From: Methanomassiliicoccales archaeon UBA147
Lineage (GTDB): Archaea; Thermoplasmatota; Thermoplasmata; SG8-5
Length of the DNA stretch: 58,832 bases
Assembly: GCA_002496385.1 (NCBI GenBank)
Contig: DAJR01000022.1
Span: 1 to 58,832, forward strand
Reading direction: 5' to 3'
Shown: piece by piece, positions 1 to 23,000 of the stretch
Numbering within the stretch: the stretch's first letter is position 1
How the letters are laid out: each line of letters starts with the position of its first letter
Notes under the pieces: model-generated
Seen by the model: only the letters and a program-made list of their open reading frames with translations
The model's database searches: none
Told to the model about the DNA's origin: nothing
Program-made: the position numbers and the translations under genes

Positions 1-59
1 CTGCCATATGGTAAACATCCAGCCCGGCCGCTATCGCCGTATTCAAAATTCGGCGTAGT

Positions 60-13352: not shown

Positions 13353-13521
13353 ATAGGTTCCCCCGGTTGACAACATGGGGCTGAGCACTGAATCCCTTGA
13401 CCATCATGGGACGGCGATTGCGAACAGACTAAAAAGCTATTGTGTATATATTACAGAAATAAACATCAGATATATATGCCTGTACATTTTTCCCGAACCA
13501 CAGTTATTTGGAGATGGAAAT

Positions 13522-14568
13522 ATGAACAAATGCCCGATATGCTCGAATCAGTTGAGTTATGTACAGCAATATCAACAGTGGTACTGCCACACCTGCAAAG
13601 CCTACAAGGTGCCGGCAGCCGCACCCGCCCAACCCGCGGGGCAGCCCCTTTACCAGCAGCAACACCAGTATCAACAGCCCGCTCACCAACAACCGCAACC
13701 TCATTATCAACAGCAAACTCAATACCAGCAGGGACCGGCCCAACCAGCCCATCAACAGCCCGCCCAGGCGCAATACCAGCACCAGCCGCAAGCCCAACCC
13801 CAGCCACAATACCAGCAACCGCAAGCGCAACCCCATTACCAACAGCAGCCAACCGTCCAACCGAACTACCCGCAGGACATGGGCGGGGAGCTTGAATGCC
13901 GCATCGAGCATTCTCCTTCATTCTCGGTTCTCATTTTCAGCCTGAAGCCCGGCCAGAGCGTCCTCACCGAGAAAGGCGCCATGATGTTCATGCACAACAC
14001 GATAGACATAGCCACGCATGGCAGACAGGGCGGCATCATGAAGGGCCTGGTCACTTCCGCGCTGGGAGGCGAATCCTTCTTCGTCAACACATACACCGCA
14101 GCACGCGGACCGGGAGAGTTGGCACTGGTGGGCCCGACCATGGGCGACGTGCGGGCGCTGGACGTCACGACCGCCCCTATGATATTGCAGAGCGGCGCGT
14201 TCCTGGCTTCGCACACCACCGTGGGCCTGGACACAAAGTGGCAGGGCCTCAAGGGTTTCCTGTCCGAGCGGGATTTCGTGATGCTCAGGGCCTCCGGCCA
14301 GGGGAAAGTATGGGTCACATCCTTCGGCGCGATAGTCGAGAAGGACCTCCGGCCGGGCGAAGTATTGTCTGTCGACACGGGTCATCTTGTCGCCTTCCCT
14401 GACACGATGCAGTTCTCCGTCCGCAGGGTGGGCGGTTGGAAGTCAACCATCCTGAGCGGCGAAGGCCTGGTCACAGATCTTGTGGGGCCAGGAAAGGTGC
14501 TGCTCCAGACGAGGACGATAGGCGCCTTCGCGGTGTCGCTGATACCCTATCTGCCCGACAGGAAATAA
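13522..14568 (+). CDS. TIGR00266/AIM24 family protein with N-terminal zinc ribbon and Gln/Pro-rich linker
   Basis: CPIC..YQQWYCHTC, then ~90 aa Q/P/Y low complexity, then EKGAMM, GGESFFVNTY, VDTGHLVAF, SGEGLV..GPGKV.LQTR. Confidence 0.9.
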   Translation: MNKCPICSNQLSYVQQYQQWYCHTCKAYKVPAAAPAQPAGQPLYQQQHQYQQPAHQQPQPHYQQQTQYQQGPAQPAHQQPAQAQYQHQPQAQPQPQYQQPQAQPHYQQQPTVQPNYPQDMGGELECRIEHSPSFSVLIFSLKPGQSVLTEKGAMMFMHNTIDIATHGRQGGIMKGLVTSALGGESFFVNTYTAARGPGELALVGPTMGDVRALDVTTAPMILQSGAFLASHTTVGLDTKWQGLKGFLSERDFVMLRASGQGKVWVTSFGAIVEKDLRPGEVLSVDTGHLVAFPDTMQFSVRRVGGWKSTILSGEGLVTDLVGPGKVLLQTRTIGAFAVSLIPYLPDRK

Positions 14569-14580
14569 TGGGACAATTGA

Positions 14581-14901
14581 CCCGCCCTCACAGGCGGGGC
14601 ATGGTCGGGATGGTTGGGACATATCACCGGGTTGTGTGCCGATGTCAACACCCCCTGGCCCTCACAGGCCAGGCCCCCAAAGGATGATGACGGTAATAGT
14701 GTCATCAACCCGGTTCGAAAAACCGGGTCACGACCCCGGCCTTGTATTCAAATTGTGAAGGGCGACCGAGGCATGAACGGGTTGGCCGGTGCCAATTCTC
14801 AGTTTTTGGCAATCCGGGTGTTGGGGTGAAGTTTATGGTCAGGCCATTTTAAACGATAATGGCCATACCCCCCGTCCTCACATGCGGGGCATGGTCGGGA
14901 T
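14581..14901 (+). mobile_element. Internally deleted copy of a dispersed palindromic element, bounded by two 33-bp end motifs
   Basis: CCCG(C/T)CCTCACA(G/T)GCGGGGCATGGTCGGGATGG at 14581-14613 and ~14869-14901. Blocks gatgtcaacacc.cctggccctca, acaggccaggcc..caaaggatga and cccggtt....aaaccggg.cacgacccc match the reverse complement of 52270-52440. Confidence 0.65.
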
Positions 14902-14970
14902 GGCAGGATAAACCATTAGCAATGTTTAATAATATAATGGTAATCGCGCTACTGTCTGTTATAGTACACT

Positions 14971-15126
14971 CGCAAACAATTCGCCACTGTGGCATAGCCT
15001 GGTACACTGACCGAATCGCTTCGCGACTCGGTCGTGCCTCGATGACTTGGGTCATCTTCGGGCGCCAGCGCTACCATCTGTGGCGAGTCATACGCAAACA
15101 ATTCGCCACTGTGGCATAGCCTGGTA
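14971..15126 (+). repeat. 34-bp perfect direct repeat (14971-15004, 15093-15126) comprising 12 nt of leader plus the first 22 nt of tRNA-Thr
   Basis: cgcaaacaattcgccactgtggcatagcctggta occurs twice around an 88-bp hairpin-rich insert. Confidence 0.92.
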
Positions 15127-15178
15127 GCGCGGCTGATTTGTAATCAGCAGGTCGAGGGTTCAAATCCCTTCAGTGGCT
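15105..15178 (+). tRNA. tRNA-Thr(UGU), intronless, CCA not encoded
   Basis: Acceptor GCCACTG/CAGTGGC, anticodon arm GCTGA-tt TGT aa-TCAGC, T arm GAGGG-TTCAAAT-CCCTT. Confidence 0.95.
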
Positions 15179-15366
15179 CTTTAATTTATTTTAACAAAAC
15201 TGAAGGGATTTGAAGCTAGACCTAGTTTCGTTATTTTCAAACAAAATCAGAGAAACTAGGTCGTAGGTTCGACGAGCTTGCTCGTCGAATTAGAATATCT
15301 AACATTGGAGCGTTTCTTTCATCCTTCGCATTGCATATTATTACAAAACATCAGTGGCTCTTTAAT
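15170..15366 (+). repeat. 16-bp direct repeat of the tRNA 3' end (15170-15185, 15351-15366) enclosing inverted repeats
   Basis: tcagtggctctttaat occurs twice. Inside: antisense of the tRNA T arm (15199-15214), GACCTAGTTTC/GAAACTAGGTC (15219-15229/15252-15262), TTCGACGAGC-tt-GCTCGTCGAA (15268-15289). Confidence 0.85.
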
Positions 15367-15387
15367 ATTTTTCCAGCCACATACCGT

Positions 15388-15407
15388 GCCCTCACAGGCG
15401 GGGCATG
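15388..15407 (+). repeat. Isolated end motif of the dispersed palindromic element
   Basis: gccctcacaggcggggcatg, identical to the motif within 14581-14602 and 50069-50092. Confidence 0.75.
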
Positions 15408-15520
15408 CTGTTTTCGCCGCTGGGGGCTCCAGCGGCATGTGCTTCCTGTCCTGACCGGCCAATCGACATATTTCAGAAATGCTTATATCCCTTCATTATT
15501 TACCTCGTTTGAGGATATCC

Positions 15521-16072
15521 ATGACAAAGAGGGCGGTGCAAAAAGTAATATTGCTAGGGGACGGAGCGGTAGGCAAAACATCGCTTGTGCGCAAATTCGT
15601 GCACAACGAGTTCAGCGAGAATTATATTTTCACTATCGGAGTCAACATCTCCGACAAGGAAATGCTGGTAAAAACCGACAAGGATGACGTTGAAGTGAAG
15701 ATGCTTATCTGGGACATATTGGGCCAGAAGGACTTTCACAGAACACAATCAGAATCTTTCATCGGCACGGTCGGGGCGCTCCTGGTCGCGGACATAACCC
15801 GGAAGGAAACGCTTGACAACCTTGAAAAATACTGGATACCACAGTATGAGAAGGTCGCGGGAAAAGTTCCGATTGTTATCCTGGCCAACAAGTCCGACCT
15901 GAAGGACAAAGCCCAATTCTCAGAGAAGGAATTGAAGGAATTTGTGGAGAAATACAAGAAGGCGACGGGTATCACTCCGTCATACTACATGACCAGTGCG
16001 AAAACCGGCAAGGACGTCGAAATAGCCTTCAACGGTCTTGCAACCCGGATCGCCAAGTACAAGGGAATGTAA
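15521..16072 (+). CDS. Rab-like small GTPase (Ras superfamily)
   Basis: G1 GDGAVGKT, G2 FTIG, G3 WDILGQ, G4 NKSD, G5 SAK. No C-terminal CaaX/CC prenylation motif. Start taken at MTKRAVQK. Confidence 0.92.
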   Translation: MTKRAVQKVILLGDGAVGKTSLVRKFVHNEFSENYIFTIGVNISDKEMLVKTDKDDVEVKMLIWDILGQKDFHRTQSESFIGTVGALLVADITRKETLDNLEKYWIPQYEKVAGKVPIVILANKSDLKDKAQFSEKELKEFVEKYKKATGITPSYYMTSAKTGKDVEIAFNGLATRIAKYKGM

Positions 16073-16083
16073 TTTCCGGTGAA

Positions 16084-16362
16084 GTGGCCTTGGAAGAAGA
16101 AAAGTTGTCCCTCGCCGGGGTGGCAGACACGATAATGCTCGAGTTCTGCAGGTCGGTGGGCGGGCTTGAGAAAGGCAGCCCGTACATCGAGAAAGCCTTC
16201 AGAGAGGCGGGCCTGAACCTTTATGACCCGACTGGCGAGCAGATCGAAAAGGCGATTGCCAATCTTGCCGCAATCGAGACCGAGCTGTTCGGCGAGGCCA
16301 AGGCCCTAGAGAACCGGGAGAACAGGCTTGAGATGCTGAAGAAGGCAAACACAATCACATGA
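16084..16362 (+). CDS. Small helical protein homologous to the C-terminal domain of the neighbouring GTPase
   Basis: GTG start 11 bp after the GTPase stop. Pattern D...EF...VG...KAF......PT....K.I...A aligns by eye with the tail of 16355-17236. Confidence 0.75.
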   Translation: MALEEEKLSLAGVADTIMLEFCRSVGGLEKGSPYIEKAFREAGLNLYDPTGEQIEKAIANLAAIETELFGEAKALENRENRLEMLKKANTIT

Positions 16363-17236
16363 TGGTTTCAAGCCAGGCCAGCCATTTTCTCTGGTAAGCC
16401 TTCGCCTTTTCTTCATCTATGCCATGCTCGGCCGCCATCCTGGCTGTTGATTTGATAATTTTCACCATGCCATCATATGTCGGTTTCTGGTTGGACACAT
16501 TCTCATCCTTGAACGCTTTCTGAAGGAGAGAATTCGAAAGCTCCTGGCCGACCAGCGCCTCGAAGTCGATGAACAGGCGGTCCACGAGAGCCACAATGGT
16601 GTCGATTTCATCAGCCCAGAATATCTCGTCGGCGACGAGTCCGTCCATGTCATCCATCAAATCGTCTTTCTCCCAGTTGTTGGCCAGCATCATCCAGGAC
16701 GCGATCTCGAAAGCCTTCTCGACATTGTCCCCTATCTTGGCGCTTGTGGGGTACCAGCTTATGGCCATCGGGTTCTTTGCCACCGCGCCGTCCGGGTCCA
16801 GCGACAGCAATGCCGAGGCAATGCCCTCCTTCTTTGGCAGAGCCCCCGAATATATGTCCAGCTTGTTGCTCAGGAAGATTATCGGCGGCAGGACTCCTGA
16901 ACTTATCCTTCTCAAAAGCGGGATCCAGTAATCGGCAAGCCCCTTCAATGTTTCAGGCCTGGTCAGGTCGGATACCAGGATGGCGCAGTCCGCCCCGGCG
17001 ATGTGCTTCGCCTGGGTCGAGGAATACCCCTGGGCGCCGATGACGTCCCATATCATGAGTACAATCTCGACGCTCTCCTTTCTGAAATCAATCTTCACCG
17101 TCTTCTTGGAGGTCTTGGTGCCGACCGTGCTGATATAACTGTCGTCGAACTGGTCCTCGACGAATTTCCTGATAAGGCTGGTCTTTCCGACCGCGGAATC
17201 GCCCAGGAGCACGACTTTCTTGACGTAGGACTTCAT
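16355..17236 (-). CDS. Rab-like small GTPase with C-terminal helical domain
   Basis: G1 GDSAVGKT, G2 STVG, G3 WDVIGA, G4 NKLD, G5 SAK, then an acidic linker and an ~80-aa helical domain. Confidence 0.9.
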   Translation of the reverse strand: MKSYVKKVVLLGDSAVGKTSLIRKFVEDQFDDSYISTVGTKTSKKTVKIDFRKESVEIVLMIWDVIGAQGYSSTQAKHIAGADCAILVSDLTRPETLKGLADYWIPLLRRISSGVLPPIIFLSNKLDIYSGALPKKEGIASALLSLDPDGAVAKNPMAISWYPTSAKIGDNVEKAFEIASWMMLANNWEKDDLMDDMDGLVADEIFWADEIDTIVALVDRLFIDFEALVGQELSNSLLQKAFKDENVSNQKPTYDGMVKIIKSTARMAAEHGIDEEKAKAYQRKWLAWLETIM

Positions 17237-17345: not shown

Positions 17346-20093
17346 TTAATTTTCCTGGCAACTTATTTTTTTTATGTGATTTTCAACATTTTCCGCAAGT
17401 TCATTAGCCCCGATTTCCTTATAATAATTCTTGGATGTCTCGAAGTAGCCAATCGCACCTTTGATATCGCCCATATCCTGATAAATAAGAGCAAGATCAT
17501 AATATGTGGTTGCAAGGTCAAATGGTATCCATTGTTGTTCTATAATTTTAATACTTTTTTGAGTTACTTCTATAGCTTTATTCCATAATTTCTTATGCCG
17601 ATAGATTATCCCAAGGCTGCGAAGAGCGCCATTGATACCCAATTCGTCATTTAATTTCTCCAAAACAAGAAGGGCTTTACTACAGAATTCTTCAGCTTTC
17701 TCAAGTTCTCCTATATTAGCTAACGCCTCTGCATAATGGAACAATGACCATCCGACCATTAATCTATTACCAATCTTTTCAGAAATTGCTTGACACTTGT
17801 TTATGGCATCTAAAGCCCGTTCCCAATCCTTCAGTCGTAGGTAGGTATCTCCTAAATTATTGTATGCTCTTGTTAATTCAGATAAATTTCCAATTTTCTC
17901 TAATTCGTTAATGCTTTTTATGTAGCATTCGATTGCCTTCTCAAATTTCCCCCAGTTGTGGTAAACATTACCCATATCTATATACGTTATCGCTATAGAA
18001 TAAGAGCCACCGGCTTTCAAGGAGTGATATATGCTCTGATTATAATGTTTCATGGCTTGGTCATTTTCTCCTTTTCTCCAGTGCAGATATCCCAGCCCCC
18101 TCTCAATTTCTCCAATGCTGGTTTGATTGTGTAATCGTTTAGCTATCTCAATAGCATTTTGATAATCTATCTCAGCTCCTTTGCAGTTACCGATAGAACG
18201 TTTTGAATGGCCAATAAAAGTAATGGCGGTCAAGATCAAATTTTCATTTTTTATTTTTTGCCCCATTATTAGTGCTTTCTCATAATATTTAATAGAATTA
18301 TTCCATTCTGAAATCTCATAAAAAAGGTTTCCCAGGCGCATATATACATTTCCTAAATCAGCATCTCTAGTATCTGATTGTTTATTTCCATGCAGGATAG
18401 TTAATGCATAATTGTAGAGTCGTATCGCCTCTTCATTCGCATACCTCTCCTTCGCCGCATCAGCCGCCTTGATGAGATATTCTCCCGCCCTCACATCCTT
18501 GGCCCAATACAAATGGTATGCTAAATCGCTCAATACCGAGTCAATGTCGTCTTTGTGGAGTTCCATGATGGTGTCGGCGACCAGCCTGTGATATTCCAGC
18601 TTCAGCTCGTCAATTATTTCTGAGTAGAGCACTTCCCTGACCTTGGCATGGTCGAACCTGAACCTCTTTTCCATGGAATGTATCAGCTTGTGCGTCTTCT
18701 CGATGTCGCTGAGATTTTTTAACAGCGCCAGCTTGTTCAGGTCCATGGTCTTGCCGACCACTTCGGTCTGGAACTCCTCCCCGACCACGGAGGCGCAATC
18801 CAGTATCTCGCGCTGGTCCTTTTTCAACCGGTCCAGGCGGCGCTTCACGACATCGTACACTTTGCTGGGGATGTCCATTTTCTCCAGGCCGGTTGTGGCT
18901 GTCCAGGTCCCTTCCTCGTCCTGCTTTATCCAGCCTTCCTCGGCTAGCAATTTCACGACTTCCAGCACGAAGAAAGGCGTGCCCTCGGTCTCTCTGAATA
19001 TTCTGTCATAAAGCTCATTCTCGAAATTGACCGTGCCCAGCGTCGTCCTGACCAGCTCCTCTGTCCCGGCCCGGTCCAGCCTGTCGAGATCAATCTTCTC
19101 CAGCAGGTCCTCCCTTGTCATGTTCTGCATCGCGGTCTCAAGCTGATGCGCCTTGCCATCCGATTGCTGGACGATATCTTCCGGCCGGTAATCGCCGACA
19201 ATGAGCACCGGATTGTTCTTGGTGTTCCTGGCAAGGTAATGAAGCAGCCCAAGTGTGCTCGGGTCCGCCCAGTGCAGGTCGTCGAGGAAAAGGAGTATTG
19301 GCTGTTCTTGCGCCAATCTCTGGATACCGAGCAAAACGTTGTCAAGCAAATTTTCTTGTCTGATCTTCGGGTCGTCCACCAGGAACTTACCGTCGTACTT
19401 ACCGCTCTTTATCAGCTTTGAGGTGATGGAATCGATGCCCTCCAGCTTTCCGAGGTCCCCGTCCCAGTCCTTGAGAACATTGCTGAAACTGAACTGAACG
19501 TCGGCAAGAACGCTTCTCATGTCGCTGACCAGGAATTCGCTGAAACTGCCTTTGGTCACAACAGCTAGGTACAGACCTTCCGATTCTTCCACCAGAATCT
19601 TGTATTCCTGGTATCCGATGCTGTTCAGCCCGCCGGTTCTGTCGACATTGTCCACCATCTGCATGGAGTCCTTGACAAAGCTTCCGACGGCTTTCAGCAT
19701 CGAGCCAAATATGTAGGGGTCCAGTCCCAATTCTTCCCTGACTGACTTTGCAATCAAAAGTCCGGCATCGTTCATAAGATATGCGGAAACGACCAATGGC
19801 GGCGGGTCGCCCGATATGAGATGGAACAACCCGGCCTCCCGAAGGGCTGATTTTATGGGCATCAATGGCTCAAGACTCTCTAAAAGGCACCGACCTTGAA
19901 TTACCTGAACGTTTTTGGATTCCGCAGCTTTAATGAGTTCTGAAACCAGCCGGGTCTTGCCGATGCCAGCTTCACCGGCGATGAAGATTGTGGAGCCCTT
20001 GCCGACAAGGGAGTTGTCCAGCGAGTGCTTGAGCTTTGTTAATTCGGTCTCACGGCCGATGAGGGCAGGCTGCTGGATGGCCAGCTCAGGCAT
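17346..20093 (-). CDS. STAND(SWACOS-like) ATPase with longin-like insert and TPR C-terminus, array copy 8 (last)
   Basis: GEAGIGKT, LFLDDLHWAD, EGTPFF, TPR helices. Start MPELAIQQ overlaps the upstream stop. Lacks the conserved W..KC tail. Confidence 0.88.
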   Translation of the reverse strand: MPELAIQQPALIGRETELTKLKHSLDNSLVGKGSTIFIAGEAGIGKTRLVSELIKAAESKNVQVIQGRCLLESLEPLMPIKSALREAGLFHLISGDPPPLVVSAYLMNDAGLLIAKSVREELGLDPYIFGSMLKAVGSFVKDSMQMVDNVDRTGGLNSIGYQEYKILVEESEGLYLAVVTKGSFSEFLVSDMRSVLADVQFSFSNVLKDWDGDLGKLEGIDSITSKLIKSGKYDGKFLVDDPKIRQENLLDNVLLGIQRLAQEQPILLFLDDLHWADPSTLGLLHYLARNTKNNPVLIVGDYRPEDIVQQSDGKAHQLETAMQNMTREDLLEKIDLDRLDRAGTEELVRTTLGTVNFENELYDRIFRETEGTPFFVLEVVKLLAEEGWIKQDEEGTWTATTGLEKMDIPSKVYDVVKRRLDRLKKDQREILDCASVVGEEFQTEVVGKTMDLNKLALLKNLSDIEKTHKLIHSMEKRFRFDHAKVREVLYSEIIDELKLEYHRLVADTIMELHKDDIDSVLSDLAYHLYWAKDVRAGEYLIKAADAAKERYANEEAIRLYNYALTILHGNKQSDTRDADLGNVYMRLGNLFYEISEWNNSIKYYEKALIMGQKIKNENLILTAITFIGHSKRSIGNCKGAEIDYQNAIEIAKRLHNQTSIGEIERGLGYLHWRKGENDQAMKHYNQSIYHSLKAGGSYSIAITYIDMGNVYHNWGKFEKAIECYIKSINELEKIGNLSELTRAYNNLGDTYLRLKDWERALDAINKCQAISEKIGNRLMVGWSLFHYAEALANIGELEKAEEFCSKALLVLEKLNDELGINGALRSLGIIYRHKKLWNKAIEVTQKSIKIIEQQWIPFDLATTYYDLALIYQDMGDIKGAIGYFETSKNYYKEIGANELAENVENHIKKISCQEN

Positions 20094-23000
20094 CGGGGAG
20101 TTCCTCCAGGGCGTCGCGGCACTTGTCAATCCAGAGCTTCCAGTTCAACTCCTGGTAAAGCTTGAGGGATTCTTCAAGATGGTCCCTGGCTTTGGCATGG
20201 TCGCCCTTGGCTTTCCAGAGGAGGCCGTACTCGTAAAATAACTTGCCCCTATCTTGTTTATGCACATAAGAACCAAATGGTGAATCATTTAATAACTTCT
20301 TAACTTTTTCAAAACATTCAATGGCTTGTTCCCATTCTTTTTTTTCCCTGAAAACCATTCCAAATATTTGATTCGATCGAATTGCTTCCCAATTTGTATC
20401 TCTTAATTTACTAGTTTCTAGAACCTTCTCAGCATTTGCAAATGCTTCATGAATATTGCCCATCTCAAGGTATACTTCTGCTAGGCCAATATATATCTCC
20501 AATAATTCCCAGTTATCTCTCTTTTCCAAACTAACATTAAGGCTTTTTTGAAGCAATTTCACAGCTTGGTTAAGTTCACCTTTTTGTTTATGCGCCATTC
20601 CGATACATGTCAATAGGAATGATTTTTCATCAGAATTTTCTTTATGCTTTGATTCTATTTGATTTAGACCTATTTTATAGTACTCGAAGGCTTTATCTAC
20701 CTCACCTAAGTTTATATGAAGATGGCCAATTGAGGATAAACTTGACTCAATTATATCTTCTATTCCAATTTTTAAAGCTATTTGATAGGACTGGGAGTAA
20801 TATGATAATGCTTTTTCTACCTCCCCCTGTAATTCGCATAGCTCGCCGTAAAACCATATAACTTGCCATGTTTGGCTTTTTATGCCCCCCTTCAAGCTAA
20901 TTTGAAGGCTTTCTTCATAACATTTTTGTGCCTGAATTAAGTCATCTCTATTTCTATTTAATATTCCAATACCTAACATAATAAATGAAATTACATTTTT
21001 ATCTCCAATTTTCTTTTTTATCGCTAAACTTTTATTATAATACTGGATTGCTTTATTCCAATTATCAGATTCTCCCCACATCGCATTTCCTCTGTTATGA
21101 AATAATAATCCAATCTCAGCGAGAGTGTCTGAAATTTCAATTTCATCTCCGATTTCTTCCCTTAATTTCAAAGCAGTTTCAAAATGCAATAGCGCTTCTT
21201 TGTATTGCTTATCTAATGGTTCGTCCGAATATGCAAAATACATACCACCAAGATTATTATGTGCACGAGCTATCTCCCTATTATCTTGTATTTTAAGTGC
21301 CATTTGTAATTCCGCATAGTATATCTCGCGTCTTTGATTCCAGCTATCTCGTGAATTGCAATAAATTCCATCTCCCTTAGTACCTAATAATCTCGCAACC
21401 TCAACACAATCTTCTCCATTTAAAAGGGCCAGGCCTTTCTCACACTCATCTTGCATAGCGTCTCTTTTATCTTGGGAACCATATGTTTTTGCTATTTTAC
21501 AATGTAATCCCGCCTTTCTTTCTAAATTAGTTTCGAATTTGATTGCATTTTGATAATTTTCTAATGCTTTGTCCGGCTCGCTGATTAGCTTGTGGATATC
21601 CCCCAATTGCTCATGCGCCCTCTTCCTCATCTCCTTATCGTCCACCACCTCCAGCGCATAATTGTAAAACCTTATCGCCTCCTCATTCGCATACTTCTCC
21701 TTCGCCGCCTCCGCCGCCTTGATGAGGTACTCCCCGGCCTTCTCATCCTTCGCCTTGTAATAATGCATGGCCAGCTCGCTCAGCACCGATTCCGGGTCGT
21801 CCTTGTGCAACTCGGCAATCGAATCCGCGACCAGCCTGTGGTATTCCACCTTCAACTCGTCGATGATCTCATCGTATAGAACAGCCCTGACCTTGGCATG
21901 ATCGAACCTGAATTTTTTCTCCATGGAATGGATTAACTTATGGGTTTTTTCGATGTCGCTGAGATTCTTTAACAGCGCCAGCTTATTCAGGTCCATGGTC
22001 TTGCCGACGATGTCGGTCCGGAACTCCTCGCCCACCACTGACGCGCAATCCAGTATCTCGCGCTGGTCCTTTTTCAACCGGTCCAGGCGGCGCTTCACGA
22101 CATCGTACACTTTGCTGGGGATGTCCATCTTATCGAGGCCGGTCGTTGCTGTCCAGGTGCCGGAATCGTCCTGCTTGATCCAGCCTTCCTCGGCCAGCAG
22201 CTTCACGACCTCCAGCACGAAGAACGGCGTGCCCTCGGTCTCCTTGTATATTTTTTCGTACAGGTCCGGACTGAAACTGCTCTTGCCCAGCGTTGTGTTG
22301 ACCAGCTCCTCAGTCCCGGCCCGGTCCAGCCTGGTCAGCTCTATCTTGCCGAGCAAATCCTCCCTGGTCATGTTCTGCATGACAACATCCAGTTGATGTG
22401 GTTTTCCGTCCGATTGCTGGACTATGTCCTCGGGCCTGTAATCCCCGACTATCAGGACTTTGTCGCTCCTTGTGTTTCTCGCGAGGTAATTCACCAGGCT
22501 CAGGGTGCTCGGGTCGGCCCATTGCAGGTCGTCGAGGAACAGCAGCAGGGGCCTGTCTGCGGACAATCTCTGAACCCCGAGCAGAACGTTATCGAATACG
22601 TTCTCCTGGCGTATCCTTGGGTCGTCCACCAAGAATTTACCGTCGTACTTACCGCTGGTAATCAGCCTGGAGATTATGGGCTTGATGCCGCTGACCTTGC
22701 CCAGGTCCCCGTCCCAACCCTTCAGGATATTGTCGAAATTGGTATGCACGTCTGCTAGGGCGTTCTTCATGTCGCCGACCAGGAATTCGCTCATGCTGCC
22801 TTTGATGACCGCTGCCAGGCTGAGGCCGCCCGATTGCTCGATCAGTATCTTGTATTCCTTGTAACCGAGAATGTTCAGGCCGCCTGGCCTTTCATCTTGC
22901 TCCACAAGGCGCATCGAGTCCCTGACGAAGCTCCCCACCGCGGTCAGCATGGAACCGAAGATGTCCGGGTCCAGGCCAAGCTCTTCTCTTTCCGCCTTGG

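Follow-up and report, generated by a model that had tools for sequence, protein, structure and literature searches.

The tRNA-Thr(UGU) gene of an archaeon of the Thermoplasmata is preceded, in the stretch of DNA analysed here (58,832 nucleotides, hereafter the window), by a copy of its own 5' end, a cassette of two hairpins, two short antisense pieces of the same tRNA and a second leader. The reading that we prefer, which is held tentatively and at slightly less than even confidence, is that this arrangement is the product of duplication and fold-back around a mobile intron-like cassette, and that its transcript would form a leader pairing with itself, which RNase P would then take off.

The host genome and the tRNA-Thr(UGU) locus

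The window belongs to assembly G000 (2.0 Mb in 66 contigs, 54% G+C, 86% completeness), in which the RNase P RNA (141.6 bits) and the SSU rRNA are both of archaeal type. The host is an archaeon of the Thermoplasmata, order SG8-5 ('Proteinoplasmatales'), and the relatives of the AIM24-family gene that neighbours tRNA-Thr(UGU) in the window were found in Thermoplasmata MAGs, 'Ca. Proteinoplasmatales archaeon SG8-5' among them. Only 21 tRNA genes were detected by ARAGORN, because many tRNA genes of this genome are interrupted.

Next to the tRNA, the window carries two Ras/Roc-family small GTPase genes and a gene for a 927-aa AAA-ATPase/TPR (STAND-like) protein (15479-16072 on the forward strand, 16355-17236 and 17346-20129 on the reverse strand), a gene content that is unusual for Thermoplasmata. 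A hairpin repeat with the core CCCGCCCTCACAGGCGGGGCATGG is present in four copies within 0.8 kb around the tRNA (14581-14613, 14655-14687, 14871-14903 and 15385-15417); relatives (L051, L066 and L170) carry it in their orthologous intergenic regions too, and it would seem to be a REP-like family of intergenic repeats.

The tRNA-Thr(UGU) gene was identified by ARAGORN at 15105..15179 of the forward strand (Rfam tRNA score of 62.4 bits) and is intact and intron-less, with the CCA not encoded. Positions 14971-15004 and 15093-15126 form a direct repeat with 34/34 identity and a period of 122 nt. The second copy comprises 12 nt of leader and positions 1-22 of the real tRNA, and the first a 12-nt leader and a copy of these same positions (E1up, 14983-15004). 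An earlier note on this DNA had described a perfect 34-bp duplication reaching into the D loop, and this was fully borne out, 22 nt of the tRNA being included. A weaker extension of the repeat is found upstream with the same spacing (14946-14959 vs. 15068-15081, with 12 matches out of 14). As the same architecture is shared by two further genomes (G006 and G008) and by the metagenome contig behind locus L170, its presence in three independent assemblies argues against an assembly artefact.

The two repeat copies are separated by 88 bp, just 5' of tRNA-Thr(UGU). The earlier note had taken these for a single insert; the length between the repeats was correct, but the segment is a composite of several parts. 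The first of them, on the forward strand as are all the others, is a two-hairpin cassette of 57 nt (15005..15061) that consists of CACTG, hairpin 1, the linker GTGCCTC (15034-15040), hairpin 2 and the 3'-terminal TTCGG (15057-15061). Hairpin 1 (15009-15033; an 11-bp stem with one A.C mismatch and a TTC loop) and hairpin 2 (15041-15056) are both where the note had placed them, and the hairpin-1 sequence occurs once in the window vs. none expected from shuffles. After the cassette the tRNA fragment resumes with GCGC (15062..15065), which equals linear tRNA positions 23-26, and longer resumptions are found in the Lys and Ser units of relatives. Antisense block A, GCGCTACCA (15068..15076), complements linear tRNA positions 18-26 (TGGTAGCGC), a stretch that is contiguous in the real tRNA only. 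Antisense block B, GTGGCGA (15080..15086), complements positions -2 to 5 of both heads, as had likewise been noticed from its match to TCGCCAC at 14981-14987 and 15103-15109. A second leader with the motif CATACGCAAACAAT (15087..15104) completes the arrangement.

A promoter-like A/T box, GTTTAATAATATAATGG, lies at 14922..14940 of the forward strand and resembles the AAAGTTTAWATA-type boxes present 30-45 nt 5' of other tRNA genes in the same genome. Unlike most tRNA genes of the genome, the real tRNA-Thr(UGU) has no promoter-like box within 75 nt. The box and its flanking GGTAATCGCGCTACTG are kept at the orthologous empty, short and long loci described below, and the promoter-like block TTTTAATA..ATAATGG.A.TCGCGCTACTG is common to the three types of allele. 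Judged by sequence, the box at 14922..14940 is probably the sole promoter for leader and tRNA. Since the only recognisable promoter is 5' of the first head, we infer a single transcript that would start near 14955 and read through the unit into the tRNA, its primary form carrying a structured leader of ~150 nt.

The cassette belongs to a tRNA-associated repeat family

A covariance model (R1) was built with hairpin 1 and its flanks from 14 copies, in which 5 out of 10 pairs of the hairpin covary and 96% of the cells are paired. The window cassette was matched by R1 with 68.4 bits at 15003-15044. Nine copies were detected in the host genome, and the cassette was present in 14 of 41 relatives, all of them in families f1-f4 of order SG8-5, and in none of 19 genomes from other families of the class. 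The search beside other tRNAs and in related genomes that had been proposed thus revealed a cassette core that is both repeated and tRNA-associated: all the inspected copies but three are in or beside tRNA genes, the exceptions being two orthologous stand-alone copies and one on G018:C1 with no tRNA found nearby.

The copies fall into four arrangements. In the first, the cassette is a T-loop intron in reverse orientation, bounded by CGAAG...CTTCG, in the genes for tRNA-Gly(GCC), Gly(CCC), Ser(UGA), Ser(GGA) and others. In the second, or short form, a small hairpin and the cassette directly abut a tRNA-Thr gene, as at tRNA-Thr(GGU) on contig C48 of the window genome, where hairpin 1 shows compensatory changes. 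The third, or long form, is that of the window, with a leader, a tRNA head reaching to the D loop, the cassette, antisense pieces, a leader and the complete tRNA, in that order; it was found at Thr, Asn, Met, Lys and Ser genes, at times in tandem arrays of two to three units. The fourth is the stand-alone arrangement, with the cassette just 3' of a promoter-like A/T box and no abutting tRNA. Both stand-alone copies (G005:C11:3150-3330 and G002:C4:138090-138190) lie ~10 nt 3' of an A/T box, AAAAGAAAAATATT; 360 nt 3' of the one in G002 lies a tRNA-Pro(UGG) gene that has its own duplicated leader and head and an antisense block. At a further locus (L086, G003:C164:100-950), the 3' two-thirds of tRNA-Ser(UGA) follow the cassette in full, with only ~6 nt of head upstream; this may be the 3' piece of a split tRNA or a broken gene.

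The strand on which the cassette acts as RNA was assessed from counts of G.U vs. A.C pairs and from sense vs. antisense folding energies in ~30-44 copies, and the signal was ambiguous. The sole consistent strand signal came from column 13/25 of hairpin 1, where 20 of the 30 copies have A.C and 6 have A-U, pairs that would read as G.U and A-U on the opposite strand.

Units and end duplications at other tRNA genes

Units of the type head, cassette, antisense, leader were found at Lys, Met, Asn and Ser genes, some of them in tandem (two to three), and the order head, hairpin, antisense, leader, tRNA was also found at Lys, Met (two units), Asp and Glu. As regards transposons and MITEs, which have element-specific terminal inverted repeats and a short target duplication of fixed length, a unit does have inverted ends (head and antisense block B), but these copy whichever tRNA follows, be it Thr, Lys or Met, and across units the duplicated length ranges from 22 to ~37 nt. 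Antisense blocks lie ~15-25 nt 5' of the Lys, Met, Asp and Glu tRNAs; the Asn unit and the Met unit on C31 are without them. The motif CATACGCAAACAAT, with its CATACGCAAAC-type leader, occurs in the host genome only before unit-bearing tRNAs, namely Thr(UGU), Lys and Met (two loci), and in relatives also before Thr, Asn and Lys units. Independent local duplications would hardly explain a leader motif common to different tRNA genes, a point that speaks against the preferred reading.

More generally, 11 of the 21 detected tRNAs have a direct repeat of at least 10 nt of their own sequence within 400 nt, nearly all of it from the 5' or the 3' end, compared to a control rate of 4% for mismatched tRNA/flank pairs. 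Among these 21, seven tRNA genes have an antisense copy of their own 3' end, which in six of them starts ~20-25 nt downstream. The 3' end of tRNA-Thr(UGU) itself is treated like its 5' end (window 15159-15372): the T-arm and acceptor (15159-15174) have a perfect antisense copy at 15199-15214, and the 3' end and trailer are repeated at 15351-15372 (91%). The ~180-nt piece between the 3'-side copies recurs with ~90% identity at the start of contig C48 (G000:C48:185-420), preceded there by a mini-helix, GCCACTGAAG-CG-CTTCAGTGGC, made of acceptor and T-stem bases only.

Two tRNA-Met(CAU) genes illustrate the tandem organisation. The one at the end of contig C31 (G000:C31:95970-96348) has a canonical anticodon-loop intron and is preceded by at least two tandem leader-head-cassette units; the assembly breaks with NN at this array, which may be longer, and at least three such tandem units were found in G005:C20. 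The second gene (G000:C14:31080-31475) is preceded by two units in which the hairpin set is a different one, with antisense-acceptor block and ATACGCAAACAAT leader unchanged; the unit heads differ from the real tRNA at two positions.

For the Thr locus, the preferred reading would start from a partial duplication of the tRNA-Thr(UGU) 5' region, giving a direct head, short inverted copies of the 5' third and the whole tRNA in direct orientation, with the upstream head followed by one lineage-specific cassette whose reverse orientation serves as a BHB intron in the T loops of other tRNAs. Such a product would most likely have originated by replication template switching or by recombination around the cassette. 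Rearrangements of direct-inverted-direct type produced by serial replication template switching are familiar from human genomics as DUP-TRP/INV-DUP; they are rare, one-off events at a scale of kilobases to megabases. The window resembles them in its succession of head, inverted head pieces and head and in having its first junction at the self-complementary GCGC, but differs in that the arrangement recurs at many tRNA genes, at a scale of tens of bases and with a common cassette and leader motif.

Empty, short and long alleles

The order AIM24 to tRNA-Thr(UGU) is kept across the order SG8-5, and the comparison of empty and filled sites that had been proposed for this insert yielded four plain tRNA-Thr(UGU) alleles at the syntenic locus (G003, G004, G008 and CAYHBA010000005). 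At the same locus the short form is present in G007, and the long form in the window, in G006 and in metagenome contig Ga0307379_10352229 (L170). A further long form was found in G008, which is of a different genus from the window, at tRNA-Thr(CGU) on a separate contig. When metagenomes were scanned for the leader-plus-head pattern, the matches were mostly due to chance, and the cassette was present in 1 of the 80 metagenome loci listed (L170).

Within a genome, the two heads are identical in three long-form Thr lineages (22/22) and match at 21/22 positions in G006; between lineages, they vary (CCTGGTA, CTCGGTA, CCTGGCA). In L170, the two leader copies differ at 6/20 positions vs. 0/22 in the heads. 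Block A is exactly complementary to the tRNA of its own genome over 8-11 nt in 4/4 long-form lineages, its position varying among them (18-26, 17-25, 15-25 and 23-30), and block B is complementary over 7-9 nt in the four lineages, reading CACAGTGG(C) against positions 1/2-9 in L170, G008 and G006. The matching changes of decoy head, real head and antisense blocks suggest that base pairing between the leader and the tRNA body is under constraint, for which we know of no described precedent in archaeal pre-tRNAs. As block A extends in 4/4 lineages across the 22/23 junction, which is uninterrupted in the real tRNA alone, the pairing that is conserved would seem to be that with the real tRNA and not with the decoy. 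Alternatively, gene conversion could account for the matching changes, or the structure could have been created anew more than once. According to the preferred reading, the module would be dispensable for tRNA-Thr function. With the antisense blocks in place, neither they nor the decoy head could drift away from the tRNA sequence, and this need to stay matched would account for the persistence of the module.

These alleles also bear on a suggestion of the earlier note, which saw in the locus a scar left by an element that integrates at the 5' half of the tRNA gene, or a miniature version of such an element. In 'Ca. Caldiarchaeum subterraneum', a 5' fragment of tRNA-Thr, an integrative element of ~1.9 kb with a recombinase gene aboard and a complete tRNA-Thr follow one another, a case interpreted as a route to tRNA gene disruption (PMC3293823). 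On this model, an integrase-borne element carrying a tRNA leader and 5' part would have inserted at the window locus, and later deletions would have left the 88-bp core between attL and attR. The 5' tRNA-Thr fragment is indeed directly repeated upstream, filled and unfilled forms exist, and the repeats flanking the insert together with the empty alleles fit the published pattern (PMC3293823), as they fit att sites of the pNOB8 or SSV type, in which a direct repeat includes part of a tRNA and relatives have an empty site. The tRNA restriction of the repeat core, the end duplications on the 5' or 3' side of many tRNA genes and the downstream leader motif common to units at different tRNAs, as if borne by an element, point in the same direction. 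In contrast, no integrase gene or fragment was found in the 88-bp insert or beside any unit, and only two tyrosine recombinases (PF00589) were detected in this 86%-complete genome, on contigs C18 and C44, where no tRNA was detected. Moreover, the insert is gene-less and has inverted head copies, unlike that of Caldiarchaeum, the same small cassette with covarying hairpins is present at every 5' unit, and a circle of ~122 bp is implausible as integrating DNA. As the arrangement is kept across genera, with heads and antisense blocks changing in a matching way, it is not a decaying scar. We therefore consider a remnant of site-specific integration improbable.

Predicted folding of the leader and the tRNA

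When the upstream unit was folded alone, the same four-helix shape was predicted in the four lineages (z = -6.2, -5.5, -4.6 and -3.3), its helices being an acceptor-like stem, a stem of D loop and antisense block, and hairpins 1 and 2. The closing stems contain sense-strand G.U pairs and no A.C pairs. Over 9-11 bp, the closing stem of G008, G006 and the Lys units is a copy of the cognate acceptor stem; that of the window is shifted to positions -2..5. In the preferred reading, the upstream head would pair with the antisense blocks during synthesis and close this module, which would keep the blocks off the 5' end of the real tRNA. This would leave the tRNA free to adopt its cloverleaf, with RNase P cleavage following at 15104/15105. 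The alternative raised by the earlier note, of a leader RNA folding as a pseudo-tRNA or sequestering the acceptor stem, is upheld in part, by the four-helix fold predicted in four lineages and by antisense blocks that track the changes of the tRNA.

The predictions for the full transcript are different. In the minimum free energy (MFE) structure of 4/4 lineages, the upstream head is paired to the 3' strand of the acceptor and the antisense blocks lock the real head; this state lies 6.7-11.7 kcal/mol below the combination of closed unit and cloverleaf. The real 5' end would thus be hidden, in agreement with the acceptor-stem sequestration that had been proposed, and the thermodynamics, which in these models favours the locked conformation in all four lineages, argues against the preferred reading. 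A leader with two states has to be considered in this regard, in which the antisense blocks would lock the 5' third of the real tRNA (1-9 and ~15-28) in a hairpin, the upstream head would compete for the antisense blocks or for the 3' strand of the acceptor, and the balance, and with it the amount of mature tRNA-Thr(UGU) made, would be set by some factor or condition that may act via the cassette hairpins. Such regulation would be favoured by the locked MFE structure, by the exact complementarity of block A over the 22/23 junction that only the real tRNA has, by the presence of G.U and absence of A.C in the closing stems, and by the similar antisense blocks before Lys, Met, Asp and Glu tRNAs. 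However, relatives of the same genus have a plain gene at the syntenic site, and the Asn and Met(C31) units have no antisense blocks, so that we regard a regulatory leader as unlikely.

The stable and conserved fold of the unit, and a closing stem that copies the cognate acceptor over 9-11 bp in G008, G006 and the Lys units, would also be expected if the upstream unit were a gene of its own, encoding a tRNA-like small RNA of ~105-120 nt with a cognate acceptor stem that would be released by RNase P and tRNase Z and might interact with a tRNA-binding protein, either as its partner or as a decoy. The position of the stand-alone cassettes of G005:C11 and G002:C4 just 3' of a promoter-like A/T box is consistent with this. 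But the unit has neither a T arm nor an anticodon arm, its closing stem is shifted in the window, it is missing in relatives of the same genus and it has no Rfam match, all of which makes such a small RNA quite improbable.

Tests for splicing

A strict scanner for bulge-helix-bulge (BHB) motifs was used, and it detected both positive controls, namely the canonical intron of Met and the T-loop intron of Gly. In tRNA-Gly(GCC) on contig C5, the reverse-orientation cassette has a proper BHB with a central helix TTCA/TGGA and an inner helix CGAAG/CTTCG, and excision of the 119-nt intron restores a T loop of 7 nt. A relaxed version of the BHB was recognised by eye in tRNA-Ser(UGA) on C8. When the window, G008, G006 and the Asn, Met and Lys units were scanned under the strict rules, no intron of period length was detected, with the single exception of a weak all-wobble UGUG/UGUG palindrome in the Thr genes only.

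A motif resembling a BHB (UGGC-AUA-GCCU-GGU paired with AUC-UUC-GGGC-GCCA) is present in the window between the D-arm portion of a head and the 3' end of the cassette, and it can be formed with either head. Its excision would remove 14996-15058 and leave a non-tRNA junction, and the motif is absent from G008 and G006 among the lineages scanned. A two-step joining of the upstream head to the tRNA body at position 13/14 via this motif was set aside because G008 and G006 lose it. The window cassette was also rejected as a BHB intron, as it follows position 22 of the upstream fragment only and the complete gene at 15105-15179 is uninterrupted.

A giant D-arm intron, in which the upstream head would serve as the 5' exon proper and splicing would remove the whole stretch from the cassette to the end of the second head, is consistent with the pairing of the upstream head to the 3' acceptor strand in the MFE structure, with the adjacency of the promoter to this head only, and with a BHB-like motif that either head can form in the window. 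It is, nevertheless, very doubtful: strict BHB motifs with excision of one period were not found apart from the weak palindrome, the BHB-like motif is lost in G008 and G006 and would not by itself restore a tRNA, and the downstream gene is already complete. The splicing endonuclease also speaks against it, as it is encoded by a single gene for a 363-aa protein with two PF01974 domains of catalytic type (G000:C10:2900-3990), and endonucleases of the two-domain type are usually strict. This two-domain protein is the sole splicing endonuclease, yet T-loop introns exist in the genome.

Comparison with known families and systems

A search of 13500-16500 against Rfam 15 gave only the tRNA and chance matches of microRNA type at E values up to 10, and the cassette of the window and three other copies had no Rfam match on either strand. 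Box C/D, k-turn and H/ACA guide RNAs were rejected, since the candidate boxes (CUGA-like and GAUGA-like strings) are not conserved among 14 aligned copies; the two antisense blocks are neighbours on a single strand and do not flank a hairpin, unlike those of an H/ACA pocket. No literature on the tRNA genes of order SG8-5 was found.

Transposed BHB introns common to tRNA genes in Thermoproteales were reportedly described by Fujishima and colleagues in 2010. The T-loop copies at Gly(GCC), Gly(CCC), Ser(UGA) and Ser(GGA) are like those mobile introns in that one conserved intervening sequence, bounded by a BHB, occupies non-canonical positions in several tRNA genes. The host is in this case one of the Thermoplasmata, and the window copy differs further in its opposite orientation, in its location in a non-functional, partial upstream copy of the gene, in the lack of a restoring BHB and in the presence of antisense blocks and a second leader.

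Split and permuted tRNA genes of archaea consist of tRNA pieces with flanks complementary to other parts of the precursor (PMC3218864), and pieces with complementary flanking sequence are likewise found in the window. Unlike in those genes, a complete gene follows, the blocks pair with the tRNA body rather than with the leader of a partner, and there is no BHB at a junction. A split or permuted tRNA was thus rejected, the contiguous gene being present and a junction BHB not being found by the strict scan.

Discussion

The results above fit duplication and fold-back around a mobile intron-like cassette best, but none of the readings considered fully explains the leader motif together with antisense blocks that track the tRNA. 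There is also a rather small chance that the locus represents a tRNA-gene module that has not been described, that is, a mobile, cassette-bearing unit that, when it reaches a tRNA gene, would write direct and inverted copies of the 5' end of its host tRNA around itself, with a leader that would choose between two heads or gate the real one. If this were true, it would provide a concrete mechanism for the movement of intervening sequences between archaeal tRNA genes, and also a new form of control of tRNA maturation. A 2026 preprint on Asgard tRNA genes treats the arrival and spread of archaeal tRNA introns as a question that is still open.

A single element is found in this order in several states, as a spliceable T-loop intron, as the structured leader of a tRNA-Thr and as the core of tandem head duplications. 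The existence of empty, short and long alleles at one syntenic locus makes the gain, loss and movement of an intervening sequence directly testable. Finally, as standard finders detect 21 tRNA genes in a genome of 86% completeness, annotation of this lineage needs models that are aware of introns and duplications.
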